A stretch of DNA of 64,000 nucleotides from Lachnospiraceae bacterium. GTDB taxonomy: Bacteria > Bacillota > Clostridia > Lachnospirales > Lachnospiraceae. How positions within the stretch are numbered: position 1 is the stretch's first letter; each line of letters starts with the position of its first letter. Positions 20,496 through 48,931 of this stretch are shown here, piece by piece. A model generated the notes under the pieces. That model made no database searches. It had not been told where the DNA came from and worked only from the letters and a program-made list of their open reading frames with translations. The stretch lies in contig JAQYAY010000038.1 in the NCBI GenBank assembly GCA_029338735.1, positions 3,669 to 67,668 of the forward strand, in the 5' to 3' direction. The position numbers and the translations under genes were made by a program.

Positions 20496-21209
20496 TTACT
20501 TAACTATACTGACAATCCCGTCTTCGACCGATATCATATCGTGTGCGATCAGGTCGATTGCTCCCGGCAGGAGTTTCCACTCTGCCTGCTCCATGATCCT
20601 TCTCTGAAGTGTCTCTGGTGTGTCATCATCACGGACATATACTGCCTTCTGCATGATGATCGGACCTGTATCCGTACCTGCATCTACGAAGTGTACCGTG
20701 GCTCCGCTCACCTTTGCACCCTTGGCGAGTACACCTTCGTGTACATGAAGGCCGTAGAATCCTTTTCCACAGAATGATGGAATCAGAGATGGATGGATAT
20801 TGATAATCCTGTTTGGGAAAGCCTTTACGATCTCAGGCGGGATCACTACGAGAAATCCTGCAAGGACTACAAGGTCTATCTTCTCTTCCTGAAGCTTTTC
20901 GAGGAGAGTCCTGTTGTACTCTGCCCTGCCTGCAAAATCCTTTGGTGAGATGCACTCTGCCTTGATATCATGCTCTTTTGCTCTCTCAAGTGCATAAGCG
21001 AGCGGATTGTTGCTGATAACTATTCCGATCTCTGCATCATTAATTGCAGCCTCTTCCATCTGACCACAGATCTCAGAAGCTGTAAGATCAGTATCCTCCT
21101 GAAGGAGCTTTGACAGGCCCCATTCACCGAGATTGCCTCTGTCTATTGCATCTATAATAGCCTGAAGATTCGTTCCGCCTCCGGAGACAAGAACTGCTAA
21201 TCTCAGCAT
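20496..21209 (-). CDS. purN: Phosphoribosylglycinamide formyltransferase (with an insertion of about 30 aa)
   Basis: 237 aa. It has [25 protein letters not shown] and the HxV/D catalytic region. The extra segment [30 protein letters not shown] sits after the first beta-alpha unit. Confidence 0.9.
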
Positions 21210-22231
21210 AGCTCTACTCCTTTTTCTCCTGACTCGATATGTCCGATAACGTACGGTGTATCTCCGGTGCTCTTAGCTGCTTCCATCACCTTGTCCACAT
21301 CGGCCTTGTCTACTGCAAGTACCATTCCGATACCCATATTGAAGGTGTTGTACATCACATGCTCGTCAATATCACCCTTCTTCTGCATCAGCGGGAAGAT
21401 AGGCTGCATTGGATATGAATCCTTCTCAATGACTGCCTTCACTCCGTCATGAAGCATACGAGGTACGTTCTCATAGAATCCGCCTCCGGTGATATGGCTC
21501 ACACCGTGTACATAAGCGCCTGCTGCCTTGATGGCCTTCAGTGCGTGTACGTATATTCTCGTAGGAGCTATGAGGACATCTCCTAATTTTTTACCACCGA
21601 GCTCGTCATATGTAGTGTCGAGTGACTCTTTTGTCATCTCGAATACCTTTCTGACAAGTGAGAAACCATTCGAATGGATTCCGGTAGAAGCGAGTCCTAC
21701 AAGTATGTCTCCGTCCTTTATATTTTCTCCTGTAATCAGGTCTTTCCTGTCAGCGATTCCGACTGAAAAACCTGCGAGATCGTATTCATCCTCAGGCATG
21801 AGACCAGGATGCTCTGCTGTCTCACCACCGATCAGAGCACAGTCAGACTGCTTGCAGCCGTCTGCTACTCCCTTTACTATCTGGGCTATCTTCTCAGGAT
21901 AATTCTTGCCACAGGCTATATAGTCAAGGAAAAATAAAGGCTCTCCGCCTGCACAGGCTACATCATTTACGCACATTGCAACTGCATCAATACCTATCGT
22001 GTCGTGCTTATCCATAAGGAATGCAAGCTTTACCTTGGTTCCGCATCCATCAGTGCCTGAAAGGAGTACCGGATCATCCATCTCCTTTATCTTTGCGAGA
22101 TCAAATGCACCCGAGAAACCTCCGATGCCGCCAAGTACCTCCGGTCTCACAGTCTCTTTTACATACTTTTTCATGAGCTCGACTGACTTGTAGCCGGCCT
22201 CGATATCCACTCCGGAATTTTTATAATCCAT
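21203..22231 (-). CDS. purM: Phosphoribosylformylglycinamidine cyclo-ligase
   Basis: 342 aa. [17 protein letters not shown] and GGETAE are present. Confidence 0.95.
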
Positions 22232-22249: not shown

Positions 22250-22319
22250 GAAGTTATAAGTTCTTAGTTCCAGGCTTTTTACTCTGAACTTGGAACTTGT
22301 AACTTTAAACTTATTACTT
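22250..22319. repeat. Inverted arrays of 7-nt units (AAGTTNN / NNAACTT) between purM and purE
   Basis: The left array is aagttat aagttct tagttcc (22251-22271). The right array is tgaactt ggaactt gtaactt taaactt attactt (22285-22319). The arms are mutually complementary in several registers. Confidence 0.7.
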
Positions 22320-22826
22320 AGAACTTAAATACTCCTTATAGCCTACTTCTTTAAGCTTTGCATCCTTTGCCTTAACATCCTCTTTCAGATCATTCACATA
22401 TGCCTTGAGTCTTTTCAGCAGTTCAGGATCCGATACTGCAAGGATCTTTGCTGCGAGGATTCCTGCATTTGCTGCTCCATTGATAGCAACTGTTGCCACA
22501 GGAATTCCTGTAGGCATCTGAACGATTGAATAGAGTGAATCAACTCCTCCGAGATCTGATGTCTTCATCGGAATTCCGATAACAGGCATTGGGAAAAGTG
22601 CTGCACACATTCCCGGAAGATGAGCTGCTTTTCCGGCTCCTGCGATGATTACCTTGATTCCTCTCTCCTCTGCAGTCTTTGCATATTCGAAGAACTCGTC
22701 CGGCTCTCTGTGAGCACTGATCACATTCATCTCATATGTGATACCGAGCTGATCAAGGATATCAGCTGCCTTTGCCATGATAGGAAGATCTGAATCGCTT
22801 CCCATAACTATTGAAACCTGTGCCAT
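22314..22826 (-). CDS. purE: N5-carboxyaminoimidazole ribonucleotide mutase
   Basis: 170 aa. [18 protein letters not shown] and AGKAAHLPG are present. Confidence 0.95.
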
Positions 22827-41750: not shown

Positions 41751-41844
41751 ATCTTTTTTGTAAAAAATTGAACAAATTTTAGTGCTTTTTTTAGTTATTT
41801 TCACCAAAAAAACACAAAATAGCCGATTTTTGGACACATCCTGA

Positions 41845-41882
41845 AACTAAAAGACACCCGGGATAAAAATCCCGGATGTCCC
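41845..41882 (-). terminator. Rho-independent terminator of the butyryl-CoA operon
   Basis: On the minus strand the sequence is gggacatccggga-ttttta-tcccgggtgtc followed by ttttagttt. It lies 40 nt after the etfA stop. Confidence 0.75.
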
Positions 41883-41922
41883 TTATTTTTCAAGAAACGT
41901 TTAAGAAAACGTTCAACTTTCC

Positions 41923-42981
41923 TTAAGCTTCTCCTTCCTTAGCCTTCTGAGCCTTGATAGCCTCAGTAAGAAGAGGAACGATCTTATTCAGATCTCCTAC
42001 CAGACCATAGTCAGCTACGTCGAAGATAGGTGCTCCCTCGTCCTTATTGATGGCGATGATCACATCTGACTCCTCCATACCTGCTACGTGCTGGATGGCA
42101 CCTGAGATACCGATTGCGAAATAGATATTCGGACGAACGGTCTTTCCTGTCTGACCAACCTGGAGATCCTTTGGCTTCCAGCCATTATCAACAACGGCAC
42201 GTGAGCATGATACCATAGCTCCCTTACCGAGTGCGTCTGCAAGGTCATCAAGAAGCTTGAAGTTCTCTGCTGAGCCGACTCCACGTCCACCAGATACAAG
42301 GATCTTGGCGTCCATGATGTTAGCAACCTTTGCTACGTCCTTTACTACCTTCTCGATAGTTACAGACTTGTTGTTCTCGGAGATCTGTATGTCAGCCTTG
42401 ATGACTTCTGGCTTTCTGCCAGCTACTGGCTCGAGCTTCTGCATAACTCCTGGACGAACTGTAGCCATCTGAGGACGGTTATTCGGGCAGGCGATGGTAG
42501 CAATTGTATTACCACCGAATGCAGGACGTGTCATGAGCAGCTGATTGTGCTTCTGCTCTACTCCCGGCTTAGCCTCAAGCGGGAAGTCTCCGATATCGAG
42601 CTTGGTGCAGTCTGCGGTAAGACCTGTAGCTACACGAGCTGATACTGTAGGTCCAAGGTCACGTCCGATTGCTGTAGCGCCTACAAGCATGATCTCAGGC
42701 TTATACTCATTGATAACACCTGCAAGTGCCTGTGCATACTGCTCTGTACGATATGTCTCGAGGAGAGGATCATCTACGATGATGACACGGTCAGCACCAT
42801 ACTCACCAAGTCTGTCAGCGAGACCCTCAACCTTTGATCCGATAAGGACTGCAGTTACCTGCTCTCCTAATGTGTCTGCTAATTCTTTTCCTTTACCAAT
42901 AAGCTCAAGAGAGATAGAAGAAAGCTCTCCGTCTACCTGCTGAGCATAGGTAAATACTCCTTTATAATCTTCTAAAGCCAT
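41923..42981 (-). CDS. etfA: Electron transfer flavoprotein alpha subunit
   Basis: 352 aa. The C-terminal FAD-binding region includes PNIYFAIGISGAIQH. Confidence 0.95.
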   Translation of the reverse strand: MALEDYKGVFTYAQQVDGELSSISLELIGKGKELADTLGEQVTAVLIGSKVEGLADRLGEYGADRVIIVDDPLLETYRTEQYAQALAGVINEYKPEIMLVGATAIGRDLGPTVSARVATGLTADCTKLDIGDFPLEAKPGVEQKHNQLLMTRPAFGGNTIATIACPNNRPQMATVRPGVMQKLEPVAGRKPEVIKADIQISENNKSVTIEKVVKDVAKVANIMDAKILVSGGRGVGSAENFKLLDDLADALGKGAMVSCSRAVVDNGWKPKDLQVGQTGKTVRPNIYFAIGISGAIQHVAGMEESDVIIAINKDEGAPIFDVADYGLVGDLNKIVPLLTEAIKAQKAKEGEA

Positions 42982-43016
42982 TATTTTACCTTTCTCTCAA
43001 AAGAGTTATATCTTCG

Positions 43017-43820
43017 TTAAATGAGGTGCTTCTCATTGAGCTTGCCCATGATGTAATCAACAGATTCCTGTGGGTCAAGAGTAACCTTTTCTCCAGCTCC
43101 CTTACGAACCTTATCAGAAGCCTTGGCAATCTTCGTAGGTGAACCCTTGAGTCCGAGATCCTTGTCATCAACATCCTTAAGGTCCTTACGGCCCCATACG
43201 GTAATCCTCTCGTCCTTCTGGTCGATTGCATCAAAGATTCCGCCCGGTGTCATGTACATTGGCTCCTTGCTAAGCTCTGCAAGAGCAGTGATAAGGCATG
43301 GCATCTGAGCCTTCAGGATATGATATCTGTCATCATACTGTCTCTTTACTTCAACAGTCTTTGCAGCCTCATCTACCTTGATATCCTCTGCATAAGAGAT
43401 AACAGGGATTCCGAGATGCTCTGCGATCTGTGGTCCGACCTGTGCTGTATCACCATCGATAGCCTGACGTCCTGTGATGATCAGGTCATAATCGATATTT
43501 CTGAGTGCTCCTGCGATAGTGGTCGAAGTAGCCCAGGTATCAGCACCACCGAGTACACGGTCAGTAACGAGGATACCATCATCAGCTCCCATAGCCATAG
43601 CCTCGAGCAGAACGTCCTCTGCCTTTGGAAGACCCATTGTAAGAACTGTGACAGTTGTGCCTGGATGTGCTTCCTTTATACGAAGTGCAGCCTCAAGACC
43701 AGCCTTGTCATCAGGGTTCATGATCGTAAGCATTGCTGCACGGTTAAGGGTTCCGTCCGGGTTGAATACTACGCCACCCTTGGTATCCGGAACCTGTTTA
43801 ATACATACTACAATTTTCAT
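43017..43820 (-). CDS. etfB: Electron transfer flavoprotein beta subunit
   Basis: 267 aa. MKIVVCIKQVPD is present. Confidence 0.95.
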   Translation of the reverse strand: MKIVVCIKQVPDTKGGVVFNPDGTLNRAAMLTIMNPDDKAGLEAALRIKEAHPGTTVTVLTMGLPKAEDVLLEAMAMGADDGILVTDRVLGGADTWATSTTIAGALRNIDYDLIITGRQAIDGDTAQVGPQIAEHLGIPVISYAEDIKVDEAAKTVEVKRQYDDRYHILKAQMPCLITALAELSKEPMYMTPGGIFDAIDQKDERITVWGRKDLKDVDDKDLGLKGSPTKIAKASDKVRKGAGEKVTLDPQESVDYIMGKLNEKHLI

Positions 43821-43843
43821 GTATCGTTTGCTCCTTTATTTGA

Positions 43844-43966
43844 TAGTTCTTAGTTATTAGTTCTAAGTTATTAGTTATTAGTTCTAAGTTATGAGTTTAT
43901 ATCATCAGAATACTTACTTTGAACTCAGAACTTTGAACTCAGAACTTTGAACTTTGAACTTACTTA
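43844..43966. repeat. Inverted arrays of 7-nt units between etfB and bcd
   Basis: The left array has 8 units of (t/a/g)agtt(c/a/t)(t/a) at 43844-43899. The loop is about 18 nt. The right array has 6-7 units (tttgaac/tcagaac) at 43918-43966, running into the bcd stop. Confidence 0.75.
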
Positions 43967-45120
43967 AGTAAGTTTCCTGAAATAACCATTCTCTGAACTT
44001 CTGATGTACCTTCGTAGATCTCTGTGATCTTGGCATCACGCATCATACGCTCTACATCGTACTCACGTGTATATCCATAACCACCGTGAAGCTGTACAGC
44101 CTTTGTAGTAACCGCCATTGCTGCTTCTGCTGCGAAAAGCTTTGCCTCTGCTGCCTCTACTGAGAATCTAGGCTTGTTCTTCTTTGCCTCTGCTGCTGCA
44201 TATACAAGGTACTGAGCTGCCTGCATGCGTGTAGCCATATCAGCGAGCTGGAACTGGGTATTCTGGAATGCTCCGATAGTGCGTCCGAACTGCTTTCTCT
44301 CCTTAACGAACTCAACAGTACGGTCTATAGCGCCCTCGCCAAGTCCAAGAGCCTGAGCTGCGATTCCGATACGTCCACCATCAAGAGTATGCATTGCTTC
44401 CTGGAAGCCCTTGCCTCTTACGCCGAGAAGGTTCTCAGCCGGGATACGGCAATCCTGGAAAATAAGCTCGTATGTAGATGAAGCACGGATACCCATCTTC
44501 TTCTCCTTGGTTCCGAATGAGAATCCAGGAGTTCCCTTCTCAACGATGAATGCTGAGAAATTCTTCTTTGGACGGCCCTTCTTATCTGTAGTAATATCTG
44601 TTACTGCGATGATGACATAGATATCTGCTTCCTTACCATTGGTGATGAAGCACTTTGATCCGTTGAGTACCCACTCATTTGTCTTCTCATCGAGAACAGC
44701 CTTGGTCTGTGCTCCCTGAGCGTCTGTACCTGCTCCTGGCTCAGTAAGAGCGAAGGCTCCGAGCTTCTCGCCCTTTGCAAGAGGTACAAGGTACTTCTGC
44801 TTCTGCTCTTCTGTACCGTAGTTAAGAATAGGGTCACAGCAGAGTGATGAATGAGCTGAAACGATAACGGCTGTTGTACCACAGACCTTTGCGAGCTCCT
44901 CTACACACATAACGTATGTAAGCGGATCACAGCCCTGTCCGCCGTACTCCTTTGGAATAGCAATTCCCATAAAGCCGTACTTTGCCATTTTCTCAACAGT
45001 TGCTCTCGGGAACTCCTCTGTCTCATCGATTTCCTGTGCGAGCGGCTTTACCTCTTTCTGAGCGAAATCAGCGAAGAGGGAACGAGCCATCTCATGCTTT
45101 TTATCTATAATAAAATCCAT
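43960..45120 (-). CDS. bcd: Butyryl-CoA dehydrogenase (short-chain acyl-CoA dehydrogenase)
   Basis: 386 aa. It has the ACAD signatures and the C-terminal [12 protein letters not shown]. Confidence 0.95.
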
Positions 45121-45141
45121 GGATTAATTTTCCTCCATTAT

Positions 45142-45208
45142 TAGGGGTTAGGAGTCAGGGGCCAGGGATTGGTTTACCAAAAACCCTATCCCCTATATCC
45201 TATCCTCT
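45142..45208. repeat. Inverted arrays of 7-nt units (G-rich/C-rich type) between bcd and hbd
   Basis: The left array is taggggt taggagt caggggc cagggat (45142-45169). The apex is tggtttacca. The right array is aaaccct atcccct atatcct atcctct (45181-45208). Confidence 0.75.
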
Positions 45209-46090
45209 TTACTGCTTGTCAACCGGAACCTTATTCTTGAAGCCCTGTGAATAATCATAGAAGCCTCTTCCACTCTTGACACCGAGATGTCCTGCACGAA
45301 CCATCTTCTTAAGAAGCGGAGCCGGACGATACTTGGAATCTGCTGTCTCTGTATAGAGTACGTTCATGATCGCAAGTACGATATCAAGTCCGATGTAGTC
45401 GCCGAGCTCAAGTGGTCCCATTGGGTGATTGCATCCGAGCTTCATGGCATTATCAACACCCTCGATATCTGCAACACCCTCTGAATATACGAAGATTCCT
45501 TCGTTGATCATCGGGATGAGGATACGGTTTGCAACGAAGCCTGCTGACTCCTGAACACGTACAGGCGTCTTTCCAAGCTTTCTTGCGATCTCCTCAACCT
45601 TCTCTACTGTCTCGTCAGGTGTGTTAGCGCCCTTGATGACCTCGATGAGCTTCATAACAGGTGCCGGGTTGAAAAAGTGCATTCCGATCACAGGAGTCTT
45701 TAAGCCTGCACCGATCTCTGTGATTGAAAGTGATGATGTATTTGATGCGAAAATGCAGTCAGGATTCTTGACGATATTCTCTTCAAGATCTTTGAAGCAA
45801 TTCTTCTTGATGTCCATAACCTCAAGAGCAGCCTCTACTACGAGATCAGGATCTGTAGCGATTGTATTGAGACCTGTCTTGAACTTGCCAACGATAGCGT
45901 CAGCCTTGGCCTGATCCATCTTGCCCTTGCTTACGAGCTTGTCAAGATTCTTCTTTACCTTGCCGAGTCCGCCCTCAGCGAACTCCTCTTTGATGTCGCA
46001 GAGATATACTGTCTCTACTTCATCGCACTGTGCGAATGTCTGGGCAATTCCTGAGCCCATAGTTCCGGCGCCGATACCTGCAACCTTCAT
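45209..46090 (-). CDS. hbd: 3-hydroxybutyryl-CoA dehydrogenase
   Basis: 293 aa. The Rossmann motif is [12 protein letters not shown], with the HFFNPAP motif. Confidence 0.95.
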
Positions 46091-46115
46091 GTGTTTTCCT
46101 CCTAAATGTAAGTAT

Positions 46116-46164
46116 TGTTAGTTAGGGAATAGGAGTCAGGGGGTAGGGGTTAGAGTAGCGAGTA
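46116..46164. repeat. Left arm (G-rich 7-nt units) of the hairpin element enclosing the four-helix-bundle gene
   Basis: The units are tgttagt tagggaa taggagt caggggg taggggt tagagta gcgagta. It is 23/27 identical to the left arm at 45141-45167. It encodes the gene's C-terminal ...NPYPLTPIP. Confidence 0.7.
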
Positions 46165-46514
46165 TTTCCCAGTTTCCGAATAATTGCACCAAGCATTTTA
46201 CCGACTTCATTGCATAATGAAAGTGCCAGATTAACCTGTTCCGCAGAAAGATAGGCAAGCCTAACACAAATTTCCAATTGTGTTTCTAACTCTGCTCTGG
46301 AACCTTGTGCAATTGATAAAAACCTTAAATATTCTCTGGTAGTATTTCTTTCATAGCCTTCTGCTATATTTGAAGGTATTGATACCACTGATCTTCTCAT
46401 CTGATCAGAAAGTGCATATAGTTCTTCTTTTGGAAGAGATTTTACAATATTATAAACTTCTTCCACAAGCATAATGCTCTTCTGCCAGACAATTAAATCC
46501 CTGTAACTATCCAT
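46122..46514 (-). CDS. Four-helix-bundle protein (23S rRNA intervening-sequence protein family)
   Basis: 130 aa. YRDLIVWQKS...LPKEELYALSDQMRRSVVSIPSNIAEGYER...FLSIAQGSRAELETQL matches the family consensus. Confidence 0.85.
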   Translation of the reverse strand: MDSYRDLIVWQKSIMLVEEVYNIVKSLPKEELYALSDQMRRSVVSIPSNIAEGYERNTTREYLRFLSIAQGSRAELETQLEICVRLAYLSAEQVNLALSLCNEVGKMLGAIIRKLGNTRYSNPYPLTPIP

Positions 46515-46547
46515 CCTATCCCCTATATCCTAAACCCTATATCCTAA
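46511..46547. repeat. Right arm (C-rich 7-nt units) of the hairpin element enclosing the four-helix-bundle gene
   Basis: The units are ccatcct atcccct atatcct aaaccct atatcct. cctatcccctatatccta (46515-46532) is identical 18/18 to 45185-45202. The reverse complement matches the left arm 46121-46153 at 23/33 positions. Confidence 0.7.
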
Positions 46548-47735
46548 TCAGTCACGCTCAACGATAGTAGCACATCCCATGCCGCCACCGATACAGAGTG
46601 TTGCAAGACCCTTCTTGGCATCTCTCTTCTCCATCTCGTGAAGAAGTGTAACAAGAATACGGCAGCCTGAAGCTCCTACTGGATGTCCAAGAGCGATTGC
46701 TCCACCGTTTACATTGACCTTGCTCATATCGAACTTGAGCTCCTTGGCTACTGCAACTGACTGAGCTGCAAATGCCTCGTTAGCCTCGATGAGATCCATA
46801 TCATCAACTGAAAGGCCTGTTCTCTTCATAACGTTCTTAACAGCTGCTACAGGGCCAACACCCATGATCTTCGGATCTACGCCGCCCATAGCGCCGCCAA
46901 CGAAGTATGCCATTGGCTTGACACCAAGCTCTTTAGCCTTCTCCTCTGTCATGAGTACGACTGCTGCTGCACCATCATTGATTCCTGATGCGTTTCCGGC
47001 TGTTACTACTCCGCCTTCAACACCTGATGCGCAGCGAAGCTTGGCAAGACCCTCTGCTGTGATTCCTGCACGAGGTCCCTCATCCTTATCGATTACGATA
47101 TCACCCTTCTTGCGGTCATGAATTGTGATAGGTACGATCTCATCCTTAAACTTGCCATCAGCGATAGCCTTCTGACACTTCTGCTGTGAATTAGCTGCGA
47201 ACTCGTCGAGCTCCTCACGAGTGAGCTTCCACTGCTTTGCAACGTTCTCTGCAGTAACCATCATATGATACTGGTTGAATGCATCCCAGAGTGCATCATT
47301 GATCATTGTATCTACAAGTACGCCGTTATTCATACGATATCCGAAACGTGCCTTGTCAAGAGCGAACGGTGCACGTGACATGGACTCTGTACCACCTGCA
47401 ACTACGATATCAGCCTGTCCGGCCATGATCATGTTTGCAGCTTCATTGACGCACTTAAGTCCTGATCCACAGACTGCATTCAGTGTAACTGCTGGTACCT
47501 CAACAGGAAGTCCTGCCTTGATTGATACCTGTCTTGCTACGTTCTGTCCAAGTCCGGCCTGGATAACGCATCCGAACTTAACCTCGTCTACCTGATCTCC
47601 CGGCACATTGGCACGCTTGAGAGCTTCCTTAACAACTGTAGCTCCCATATCTACTGCTGATACGGTAGAGAGCTCTCCGCCCATCTTACCGATTGCTGTA
47701 CGGCATGCTCCTGCCAGAACAATTCTTCCTGCCAT
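46548..47735 (-). CDS. thl: Acetyl-CoA acetyltransferase (thiolase)
   Basis: The track ORF is over-extended. The start [20 protein letters not shown] at 47735 follows AAAAGGAGAC. The thiolase active-site motifs ([16 protein letters not shown] and the CIGGGMG region) are present. Confidence 0.95.
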
Positions 47736-47753
47736 GTCACGTCTCCTTTTCTG

Positions 47754-47765
47754 GCGCTTTCGCGC
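47754..47765 (-). promoter_or_regulatory. GCGC-GAAA-GCGC tetraloop hairpin in the thl 5' UTR
   Basis: The 12-mer gcgcgaaagcgc (minus strand) lies about 19 nt upstream of the thl ATG. It is identical to the 12-mer in the cysE leader (4634-4645). Confidence 0.45.
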
Positions 47766-47827
47766 ACTTTGCTTTCCATGGAAAATGCGGTTTCCTGTTT
47801 CAATTTGTTTCCTGAAAAATACCAAGT

Positions 47828-47845
47828 CTGTTAAAAATTTAACAA
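47828..47845. promoter_or_regulatory. Rex (redox-sensing repressor) operator candidate
   Basis: The minus-strand sequence TTGTTAAATTTTTAACAG matches the Rex consensus TTGTTAANNNNTTAACAA at 13/14 specified positions. It lies between the thl promoter and the start codon. Confidence 0.6.
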
Positions 47846-47888
47846 TCTTTAACAAAAAATATAAGCCGCCGCACCGGCTACGCTTCAT

Positions 47889-47917
47889 ACTTTACCACAT
47901 ACGACGACTCATATCAA
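47889..47917 (-). promoter_or_regulatory. Sigma-70-type promoter of the thl operon
   Basis: On the minus strand: TTGATA (47917-47912), a 17-nt spacer, then TGG-TAAAGT (extended -10, 47894-47889). Confidence 0.55.
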
Positions 47918-47941
47918 GTGATTTTTTGTAAAAAAGAGAAT

Positions 47942-48931
47942 TTATGGATTGCACCTCTTGCACGGGCTGTAACCCTCGCTGATCAGCGTTTTCCTCTTTT
48001 CCTTAACAGTTTTCTTATTGTGATCTGCCATCTGTCTGACTGATGAACATGATGGCTTGTGAAACTTTTTCGTGTTCGTATTCAGCACATAAGTGTGCTT
48101 GCCGCTGTCATTCTGGCGGCTTCTGCTGTTCTGGGTCTTCTGCTTCGTACTCGGAGTAGATCCCGTATACTCAGGTCCCTTGCTCGATCCATCCTTGTAA
48201 TTAATAGTCACTCCTGGCTGGACATTGTAGCAGAAGGCGCAGAACCTCACTCCGCGGCCCTTATCCTCTATACTCTCCGCTTCCATCAGGACTCCGCGGG
48301 CAAGCAGTTCCTTTCCCTTGAAAACAGGAGTAACACGATACAGAACATGATCATCCGGATTGCTATGCAGGTAATCTGCCACCTCGTCCTCAAACGGCAG
48401 CATGCCCTCAATATTCAGGTATCTCGTGCCGGTAATGAGATTCTCTTCATTCGCATTCTCACCGGTGAGCTGATATCCTATCAGATGGCACCTGTTGTAG
48501 AGGTAATTCCCGTCAATTCCGGCATACTTCACCGTGTGCCAGCCACTCGGGCGGATCATCCCGATAGCACCCCTTGCCTTATCAGGCATCAGATCTGTAC
48601 CAATATTCGCAATTGTAGTCGTACATCTGCCACGGCTGTCAAGACTTCCATACTTCTCATATGACCGACTGCTCTTCAGCTGCTCCGATGTGAAATATGG
48701 CTTGTTGTGGTTGACCTTTACATATGCCTTCTTTCCATTCCATTCAGGGACATCTTCGCTATATGAAAAGCCCTTCGGGACTGGGTTGGCTTCTGCGTCA
48801 ACTACTGCATTTGTAATCTGCTGCCCACTCAGGTCAGCTCCCGTGCCTGCTGCTGATGCAATTATCAAAAAAGCGACCAGCAGTCCAGCGGGAACTGCCC
48901 TGATCGCTTTAATAAATCTGTTATTCTTCAT
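47942..48931 (-). CDS. Secreted/anchored DNA/RNA non-specific (DNA-entry type) nuclease with a C-terminal Ada-like Cys motif
   Basis: 329 aa. The N-terminus is a signal/anchor. The nuclease core is LDSRGRC...NRCHLIGYQLTGENANEENLITGTRYLN. The C-terminus is FHKPSCSSV...GYSPCKRCNP. Confidence 0.7.
   Translation of the reverse strand: MKNNRFIKAIRAVPAGLLVAFLIIASAAGTGADLSGQQITNAVVDAEANPVPKGFSYSEDVPEWNGKKAYVKVNHNKPYFTSEQLKSSRSYEKYGSLDSRGRCTTTIANIGTDLMPDKARGAIGMIRPSGWHTVKYAGIDGNYLYNRCHLIGYQLTGENANEENLITGTRYLNIEGMLPFEDEVADYLHSNPDDHVLYRVTPVFKGKELLARGVLMEAESIEDKGRGVRFCAFCYNVQPGVTINYKDGSSKGPEYTGSTPSTKQKTQNSRSRQNDSGKHTYVLNTNTKKFHKPSCSSVRQMADHNKKTVKEKRKTLISEGYSPCKRCNP

Follow-up and report, generated by a model that had tools for sequence, protein, structure and literature searches.

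The stretch of DNA analysed here, referred to below as the window, comprises 64,000 nt of contig JAQYAY010000038.1 (positions 3,669 to 67,668) from the metagenome-assembled genome (MAG) of a rumen/gut Lachnospiraceae bacterium. Inverted arrays of 7-nt units (heptads) occupy gaps in its butyrate operon (thl-hbd-bcd-etfBA) and its purine operon (purE-purM), and the minus strand is the coding strand of every gene around the four array sites. At one site the arrays flank a gene of PF05635, a family named "23S rRNA-intervening sequence protein" (IVP). In the full cassette a purine-rich 5' arm (3-8 heptads, AG invariant) is followed by a PF05635 gene of ~120 codons and by a complementary 3' arm that is rich in pyrimidines and keeps CU invariant. 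Of the four cassettes in the window, the one at thl|hbd is full, and those at hbd|bcd, bcd|etfB and purE|purM lack an open reading frame (ORF). We consider it probable that the arrays form the arms of hairpin cassettes belonging to the intervening-sequence (IVS) family, with or without the IVP ORF, placed after a stop codon and before the ribosome-binding site that follows.

The features are listed in transcript order, with array units in transcript sense; array coordinates and copy numbers were obtained with Tandem Repeats Finder (TRF).

47888..46548, minus strand: thl, first gene of the first operon; stop codon at 46548-46550
46106..46545, minus strand: complete ORF-bearing cassette of 440 nt, between the thl stop and the hbd ribosome-binding site (5' arm, IVP gene, 3' arm)
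46511..46547, minus strand: 5' arm of the IVP cassette, UUAGGAU AUAGGGU UUAGGAU AUAGGGG AUAGGAU (TRF 46513-46547, 4.9 copies; period 14 at 90% match)
46514..46122, minus strand: IVP ORF, 130 aa, first operon, between thl and hbd
46116..46165, minus strand: 3' arm of the IVP cassette, CUCUAAC CCCUACC CCCUGAC UCCUAUU CCCUAAC, complementary to the 5' arm
46090..45209, minus strand: hbd, first operon
45131..45214, minus strand: type-2 ORF-less hairpin in the hbd-bcd gap (from its fold and its matches to the IVP cassette arms)
45175-45208, minus strand: 5' arm of the hbd-bcd hairpin, AUAGGGG / AUAGGAU units (TRF array 45184-45205, 3.1 copies)
45138-45170, minus strand: 3' arm of the hbd-bcd hairpin
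45120..43960, minus strand: bcd, first operon; stop codon at 43960-43962
43834..43958, minus strand: type-1 ORF-less hairpin cassette, between the bcd stop and the etfB ribosome-binding site; it adds 125 nt to what is seen in the empty allele TAA-GGAGCAAAC..ATG
43916..43961, minus strand: 5' arm of the type-1 cassette, [A/G]AGUUC[A/U] x6.6 (TRF period 7/14, score 64-78), starting at the bcd stop codon
43844..43897, minus strand: 3' arm of the type-1 cassette, AACU[A/U]A[G/U] x7.7 (TRF period 7/21, score 66-92)
43820..43017, minus strand: etfB, first operon
42981..41923, minus strand: etfA, last gene given of the first operon
22826..22314, minus strand: purE, second operon; stop codon at 22314-22316
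22251..22327, minus strand: type-1-like hairpin in the purE-purM gap (TRF, fold, shuffles)
22286-22327, minus strand: 5' arm of the purE-purM hairpin, AAGUUnn x6 (TRF 6.0 copies)
22251-22272, minus strand: 3' arm of the purE-purM hairpin, ~3 units
22231..21203, minus strand: purM, second operon, after purE

Periodicity, folding and content of the four sites

An earlier note on this DNA had located four such sites from the sequence alone; all of them exist at the positions it gave, with TRF period-7 arrays at each. In the etfB|bcd arrays, identity at lag 7 was 0.79-0.81, versus 0.05-0.42 at all other lags but 14. Chance was assessed with 200 shuffles of the 64-kb window, in which segments of 28, 42 and 49 nt were scored at lag 7. 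The claim that the periodicity exceeds that of shuffled sequence stood for type 1, where the values of the three arrays were reached in 0 of 200 shuffles. It did not stand for the type-2 arrays, which are degenerate and whose periodicity alone is not significant (0.045 to 0.86 of shuffled windows reach their values). The type-2 arrays are supported otherwise, by mutually complementary arms, by sequence shared between sites, and by cleaner copies in relatives (L093). Between the hbd|bcd hairpin and the IVP cassette arms there are exact matches of 18 nt and 13 nt and a 34-nt alignment; elsewhere in the window the longest match is 9-11 nt. A lower-threshold scan of the whole window returned the same four sites and one borderline coding hit. 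Two unit types are present within 25 kb, and loose contig ends point to further loci with both of them.

Folding in transcript sense gave -34.9 kcal/mol for the bcd-etfB hairpin (z = -3.2), -21.4 kcal/mol for purE-purM (z = -3.2) and -30.9 kcal/mol for hbd-bcd (z = -1.9). In the minimum-energy fold of the thl-hbd cassette the arms pair across 346 nt, over the ORF (z = -2.8). The long imperfect transcript duplexes that the earlier note expected are therefore predicted at all sites (z -1.9 to -3.2). A gapless inverted-repeat finder missed 4 of the 4 sites because the arms are bulged. All four share one polarity, with the AG-bearing arm first and the CU-bearing arm second in the transcript. At the purE-purM array, the purE stop and the last purE codons fall inside the first units. 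An Rfam scan of 41800-48000 found no family at the hairpins.

The gene map and a terminator scan agreed with the note in placing the arrays inside operons without a U tract: a terminator-like motif (G+C-rich stem followed by a U tract) was absent at every hairpin, and no promoter-like site was found at the cassettes. RNA contigs from metatranscriptome assemblies read through the hairpins and the IVP gene. Together, these observations exclude an intrinsic terminator as the identity of the window hairpins, and in view of the read-through the cassettes appear to be co-transcribed with the host operon. The description of the operon as highly expressed also held, as bcd-etf is abundant among rumen metatranscriptome contigs. 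The sites were correctly distinguished from CRISPR arrays, since their 7-nt units are contiguous and lie in inverted arrays, rather than being 24-48-nt repeats with unique spacers.

The earlier note went astray at the hbd|thl site, which it treated as one gap with a short loop. What it took for a loop is an ORF of 130 codons (46514..46122, minus strand), the sole IVP ORF in the window, whose product matches PF05635 at 4e-41 and TIGR02436 ("four helix bundle protein") at 2e-39 and is related by sequence to PDB 2gsc (XCC0516, 9e-23) and 2rld (4e-9). The proposal of a free-standing, undescribed RNA element is not supported: a PF05635/IVP gene sits between the type-2 arrays, and a heptamer-bearing member has already been described in rRNA. 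Because the gene was overlooked, so was the general flank architecture of the IVP family. Gene and arms overlap. A Shine-Dalgarno-like sequence and the ATG lie within the 5' arm (46511..46547), the start codon being in its last unit, and the frame reads on through the 3' arm (46122-46165) to give a ~14-residue tail, NTRYSNPYPLTPIP, that is not in 119-aa homologues. Repeat arms can thus inflate ORF calls with spurious C-terminal tails. This one query drew >6400 homologous hits. In species-representative genomes, no IVP match exceeded 66% identity. No homologue was found in 50,697 phage records, and a phage origin of the cassette was rejected on that ground.

Two side observations concern the ends of the butyrate operon. 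The thl ORF as listed (46548-47888) has 446 aa, ~51 codons beyond the 395-aa products of relatives, and its Thiolase_N domain begins at residue 56; judged from these lengths, the true start is probably downstream of 47888. At 41850-41922, 3' of etfA, a G+C-rich inverted repeat is followed by a T run (GGGACATCCGGGATTTTTATCCCGGGTGTCTTTTAG, transcript sense). The simple terminator scan did not list it, and from its sequence it looks like a real operon terminator.

Heptad arms at IVP genes across phyla

Using an alignment of 28 homologues, we fetched 80 IVP loci from species-representative genomes. The phyla sampled include Clostridia, Bacteroidota, Pseudomonadota, Kiritimatiellia, Ignavibacteriota, Acidobacteriota and the Candidate Phyla Radiation (CPR). 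An array was called where lag-7 identity was at least 0.70 over 35 nt within a 110-nt flank, and segments 1.2-1.5 kb away served as controls. At 72 species-representative loci, heptad arrays were present in 49% of 144 flanks versus 1% of 128 controls; the same flanks gave 0-7% at lags 4-6 and 8-12. An independent set of 75 metagenome loci replicated the association (55% of 142 flanks versus 0% of 109 controls).

In 46 of 69 loci, reverse-complementing the 3' unit gave the 5' unit with no more than one mismatch; units differed by a mean distance of 1.3 within loci versus 3.1 between loci. These 69 loci have 55 distinct consensus units, and the unit contains AG in 63 of the 69. Since the arms are complementary within loci though the units differ almost everywhere, complementarity is maintained while the sequence drifts. 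Upstream arms are purine-rich (64%), with a phase-invariant AG in 66% of 5' arrays; downstream arms are pyrimidine-rich, with a phase-invariant CT in 77% of 3' arrays. IVP genes are typically in sense with their neighbours (co-directional in 55/65 cases upstream and 55/66 downstream), across median gaps of 54 and 36 nt. Other phyla also have inverted heptad pairs without an ORF close to IVP genes, such as three at L057, an Ignavibacteriaceae locus, and where the genes flanking such pairs are co-directional the purine-rich arm nearly always comes first in the transcript. AGTT-type units like those of window type 1 flank IVP genes at L103, L025, L048 and L182-L191 (AGTTG / CAACTAC).

Units are held in common only by IVPs that are at least 70% identical, and sharing is at background below 60%. 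The heptad units diverge much faster than the protein; a sequence-specific code between protein and repeat is therefore unlikely, and we rejected it. Stop codons in all three frames are more frequent in the units than in random units (56% versus 40% in 5' arms, 34% versus 24% in 3' arms), an enrichment too modest for three-frame stops to be the driver of the heptads.

The survey also turned up arrays of other layouts. In a Thermodesulfobacteriota MAG (L038, 2440-2980), the 5' arm upstream of the IVP gene consists of about six copies of a higher-order repeat of ~80 nt, itself made of heptads (AAGGGGC..., GAACATC...); as a heptad-built tandem repeat without unique spacers, it was rejected as a CRISPR-like array. 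A rumen Bacteroidales MAG (L036, 5268-5322) has a solo direct array of TTGAACT x6, the window type-1 unit, after a helicase gene and before efp, with no inverted partner. At L112, L121 and L127 the IVP genes are flanked by direct, not inverted, arrays, with GAGATTT / GAGAATT units on both sides. Many of the contigs analysed end in arms.

Allelic states in strains and metagenomes

We compared the window with a sister species (L086-L091), with strains whose hbd protein is identical to P0153 and falls in the same 90%-identity cluster as the window hbd (L092-L098), with L001, and with contigs of public rumen/gut DNA and RNA runs. At thl|hbd, the sister species has a 94-nt gap with no IVP gene. Some of the L092-L098 strains carry a 69%-identical IVP with other arms (NNAGAGG x5-6, CCTCNNA x4-5), and others carry the window-type cassette with two more units and a broken gene; in L093 the broken gene encodes 56 aa and the 3' arm consists of cleaner CCCCTAA x3-4 units. 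The joint 46105->46546 in an RNA contig (X1) skips exactly the whole 440-nt cassette. DNA contigs with both arms and no ORF have the joints 46166->46498 and 46153->46516, the latter with a 14-nt loop, and one contig allele has a 180-nt deletion inside the ORF.

The bcd|etfB gap measures 66 nt in the sister species, with no heptads, and 55 nt in L092-L098, except for L096, where it is merely 14 nt (TAA-GGAGCAAACAATAC-ATG). Window and L096 differ by exactly the 125-nt hairpin, which sits between the stop codon and the Shine-Dalgarno sequence. The same 125-nt skip (joint 43833->43959) was seen in RNA contigs of four rumen metatranscriptomes and in one DNA metagenome (run X27). RNA excision by splicing was rejected because this joint exists in DNA (L096, run X27), and the skip is therefore a DNA polymorphism. 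In the hbd|bcd gap, the sister species has a 166-nt non-heptad hairpin, the type-2 hairpin of the window gives way in L001 to one resembling type 1, and elsewhere the hairpin is replaced by 95 other letters or a short gap of 26-43 nt. The purE|purM hairpin was present in 4/4 runs examined, one of them with a 36-nt duplication.

Full, emptied, ORF-less or replaced states were thus observed at three of the four window sites among strains and rumen/gut metagenomes. The earlier note had regarded absence from the orthologous gaps of all relatives, combined with a lack of any effect on processing or stability, as telling against its proposal. The arrays are missing in some relatives only, and we read this as presence/absence polymorphism of an inserted cassette. 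The states seen at thl|hbd form a series that starts with the full cassette, passes through a broken or deleted ORF and then arms alone, and ends with the empty gap; we infer a resemblance to the cycle of invasion, decay and loss of other selfish genes. The ORF-less forms most likely arise by ORF loss, and they may also spread as mini-cassettes. No transposase gene was found in the cassette, and target duplication was not consistent at the two sites compared.

The suggestion that the repeats are prone to slippage was borne out by indels of 7, 14 and 21 nt between strains and samples. Arm lengths differed between samples by 7, 8, 14 and 21 nt (pairs of 35 versus 42 nt and 81 versus 88 nt; others of 32, 39 and 60 nt). 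The 5' arm of the IVP cassette is 14 nt (two units) longer in relatives and other samples, and the bcd-etfB 3' arm has 7- and 8-nt indels in other samples; a change of -7 nt was among the differences between contigs.

A second, non-heptad hairpin family of ~120-166 nt, containing ...GCTTGAA[C/T]TTAGCGAAAAGAACTTCC..., was encountered in the relatives (L086 3608-3773, L092 5946-6067, L002 1-90). Its places in their thl-hbd-bcd-etfBA operons are the hbd|bcd and etfB|etfA gaps and a position upstream of the IVP cassette; the 64-kb window lacks it. This operon's gaps seem to form a hot spot into which hairpins of several kinds are inserted.

Described relatives, competing explanations and significance

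The closest described relative of the window cassettes is the 23S rRNA IVS of Coxiella burnetii. There, an S23p (PF05635) ORF lies in a stem-loop closed by terminal inverted repeats, preceded by two or three tandem GACAGAT heptamers, depending on the strain. This ORF is undergoing decay, and the RNase III enzymes of Coxiella and E. coli cut the stem, the 5' cut falling at the start of the first repeat (PMC4990558). The classical S23p-type IVS of Coxiella burnetii and Leptospira carries its PF05635 gene in the loop that a long stem closes. The thl|hbd cassette reproduces this plan, while the other three window sites are ORF-less. The likeness extends to long stems closed by inverted repeats (here, in the minimum-energy folds), to arms that vary in 7-nt steps, as do the Coxiella heptamers in the 5' stem just before the ORF, and to a sporadic distribution with an ORF that decays in some strains, matched by window cassettes that are empty, replaced, ORF-less or broken in other genomes. 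The rRNA element is transcribed with its host gene, with no promoter of its own, as the window cassettes appear to be. S23p-type IVSs, however, sit in a helix of 23S (or 16S) rRNA, whereas the window cassettes sit in spacers between protein-coding genes. The window arms are longer than the IVS repeats and periodic on both sides, and ORF-less copies adjoin the full one. RNase III cleavage is demonstrated for the rRNA elements and putative for the window cassettes. Since the rRNA location is lacking, we file the window elements as a variant of the S23p-type IVS, not as members. The three ORF-less hairpins are paralleled by ORF-less 23S rRNA IVSs of the Salmonella, Campylobacter and Yersinia type, again with the difference of the rRNA-helix location; these are short extra stem-loops, variable between strains and operon copies, that are removed by RNase III (PMC4990558, 10.1101/2024.02.27.582315).

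Analogy with the rRNA elements suggests how the cassettes would behave. The arms would pair on the transcript into an imperfect duplex of 25-45 bp, RNase III would cut this duplex and split the polycistronic mRNA there, and at a full cassette the cleavage would free the IVP message. By the same analogy the window duplexes are probable RNase III substrates, and their processing is plausible. The effect on the host would probably be small or modulatory, and the cassette may persist as a selfish passenger that borrows the transcription of the host operon. We know of no report of heptad periodicity in ORF-less 23S rRNA IVSs.

Intergenic heptanucleotide repeats have been described in other bacteria, namely the STRR GGGGA[C/T]T of cyanobacteria (Nostoc/Anabaena), GGGAATC of Xanthomonas and TAACTGA of Beggiatoaceae (PMC4692102, PMC4679880). 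They are mostly intergenic, often within operons (e.g. pecE|pecF), and their copy number differs among relatives; in Xanthomonas, GGGAATC forms 70-75 convergent (inverted) pairs, and heptanucleotide units carry stop codons in all frames. They have been treated as G-quadruplex or regulatory elements, without link to PF05635 (PMC4692102, PMC4679880). These STRR / LSSR families share with the window arrays tandem, intergenic, number-variable 7-nt units. They have one dominant unit per genome, whereas the window has two unit types within 25 kb and the unit changes between loci. Plasmid-borne IVP homologues are mostly cyanobacterial. In Anabaena sp. 90, plasmid pANA02 (L181 1195-1563) carries a four-helix-bundle gene in a type I-D locus, with cas6 on one side and cas4 on the other; upstream of it are GGTGACA / GGGAACA units and downstream CTGTCAC x4. 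This position agrees with published accounts that place IVP genes within cas operons (PMC3936711), and such a layout could explain why the family has repeatedly been reported as "CRISPR-associated".

Other small elements are more distant. Repetitive extragenic palindromes (REP/BIME) and MITEs (miniature inverted-repeat transposable elements) are small, structured, strain-variable palindromic insertions in intergenic DNA at the 3' ends of cistrons, and they can affect mRNA stability. The window cassettes resemble them as strain-variable palindromic intergenic insertions, and are alone in their heptad periodicity. REP / BIME elements are ~35-nt imperfect palindromes mobilised by the RAYT (Y1) transposase, whereas the window arms are periodic and multi-unit, and no sign of RAYT dependence was found, though no screen of the window aimed at that gene was made. 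MITEs and other elements derived from insertion sequences (IS) have IS terminal inverted repeats and a fixed target duplication, whereas the window junctions are of 3 nt versus 0-1 nt and there is no transposase gene. The Avd protein of diversity-generating retroelements has a four-helix-bundle fold homologous to that of the window IVP. Avd adjoins a reverse transcriptase and template/variable repeats, whereas the neighbours of the window IVP are thl and hbd; its similarity to bAvd is weak (7e-12), and its DivGenRetAVD score of 47 bits is below the family cut-off of 80 bits.

Several observations weigh against reading the arrays as arms of IVS-family cassettes. About half of the IVP flanks lack clear heptads, and the window's species yielded no IVP gene whose arms are of type 1, the analogous AGTT-type arms being found elsewhere only. 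At bcd|etfB the junction ambiguity or target duplication amounts to 3 nt, and at thl|hbd to 0-1 nt. For each of two exact IVP proteins a single genomic context was seen, which led us to reject recent multi-copy transposition. The RNA contigs used as evidence of transcription may contain DNA. Sense and antisense arm duplexes are equally stable (37 versus 29 loci, p = 0.77) and G-U pairs are nearly symmetric between strands (206 versus 158), so that G-U asymmetry as a sign of RNA-level selection was negative (p = 0.77). With no strand difference, what preserves the pairing may act on the DNA or be a copying mechanism, rather than selection on the RNA. Lastly, an independent insertion, and not a deletion, could account for the allele that lacks the ORF and has a foreign 14-nt loop.

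That allele speaks for an explanation we nevertheless regard as unlikely, in which the hairpins are an independent REP/STRR-like family that pre-existed in the spacers and only the IVP ORF is mobile, homing into their loops much as rRNA IVSs sit in helix loops. ORF-less and ORF-bearing alleles with the same arms do occur at one locus, solo heptad arrays are many, and heptamer families have been described without an IVP link (PMC4692102, PMC4679880). However, the thl|hbd joint takes out arms and ORF together, all 440 nt, and the two IVP variants in that gap come with two types of arm. The restriction of shared units to IVPs at least 70% identical is expected if arms and ORF travel together, and the several distinct degenerate ORF alleles point to loss of the ORF rather than gain. 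Still less probable is that the hairpins are host-selected RNA elements, grown in place by slippage, that control processing, stability or translational coupling, with the IVP link incidental. Their exact placement between stop codon and ribosome-binding site, in abundantly transcribed operons, and folds more stable than those of shuffled sequence would suit such elements. Yet close strains and a sister species, with the flanking genes conserved, lack them or have other sequence in the orthologous gaps, there is no strand-specific pairing signal, the IVP association is strong and replicated, and the hbd|bcd hairpin nearly duplicates the IVP arms. A conserved host regulatory hairpin is likewise unlikely.

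The equality of sense and antisense pairing is what one would expect if the arrays acted as DNA or protein-binding sites, bound by a pentameric Avd-homologous IVP, with the inverted geometry serving cruciform formation, recombination or templated copying. The AG/CT core at fixed phase in most arrays, the mostly basic family (median pI 9.0), the weak bAvd homology and the five chains each of PDB 2gsc and 2rld fit as well. We nevertheless give this explanation very little credence, as the window IVP is not basic (pI 6.3), the units change much more quickly than the protein they would bind, and ORF-less hairpins persist without a nearby gene. A bolder form of the cassette hypothesis, which we advance as an improbable conjecture, would make the PF05635 gene and its heptad arms an autonomous mobile cassette without transposase. 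An Avd-like pentamer would recognise the AG/CU core and copy the cassette, with host polymerase or reverse transcriptase, into stop/Shine-Dalgarno junctions of transcribed operons and rRNA helix loops, and the cyanobacterial and xanthomonad heptanucleotide families would be its footprints.

What may be new here is the general, replicated link of IVP genes with inverted heptad arms between cistrons; the Coxiella rRNA IVS with its heptamers was already known. Our search of the full-text literature for a published general link between PF05635 and heptad repeats returned the Coxiella IVS paper alone, with subscription journals partly covered, so that an earlier description is possible. In practical terms, the cassettes break metagenome assemblies, and heptad arrays beside IVP genes might contribute to "CRISPR-associated" calls. 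The finding joins three subjects: rRNA intervening sequences, four-helix-bundle/Avd-like proteins, and the excess of intergenic heptanucleotide repeats. No function is known for the very large PF05635/TIGR02436 family, of which structures have been solved, and the heptad-array context now provides something testable. In rumen Lachnospiraceae, strain-variable hairpins in the butyrate operon could alter the ratio of the enzymes of the pathway.

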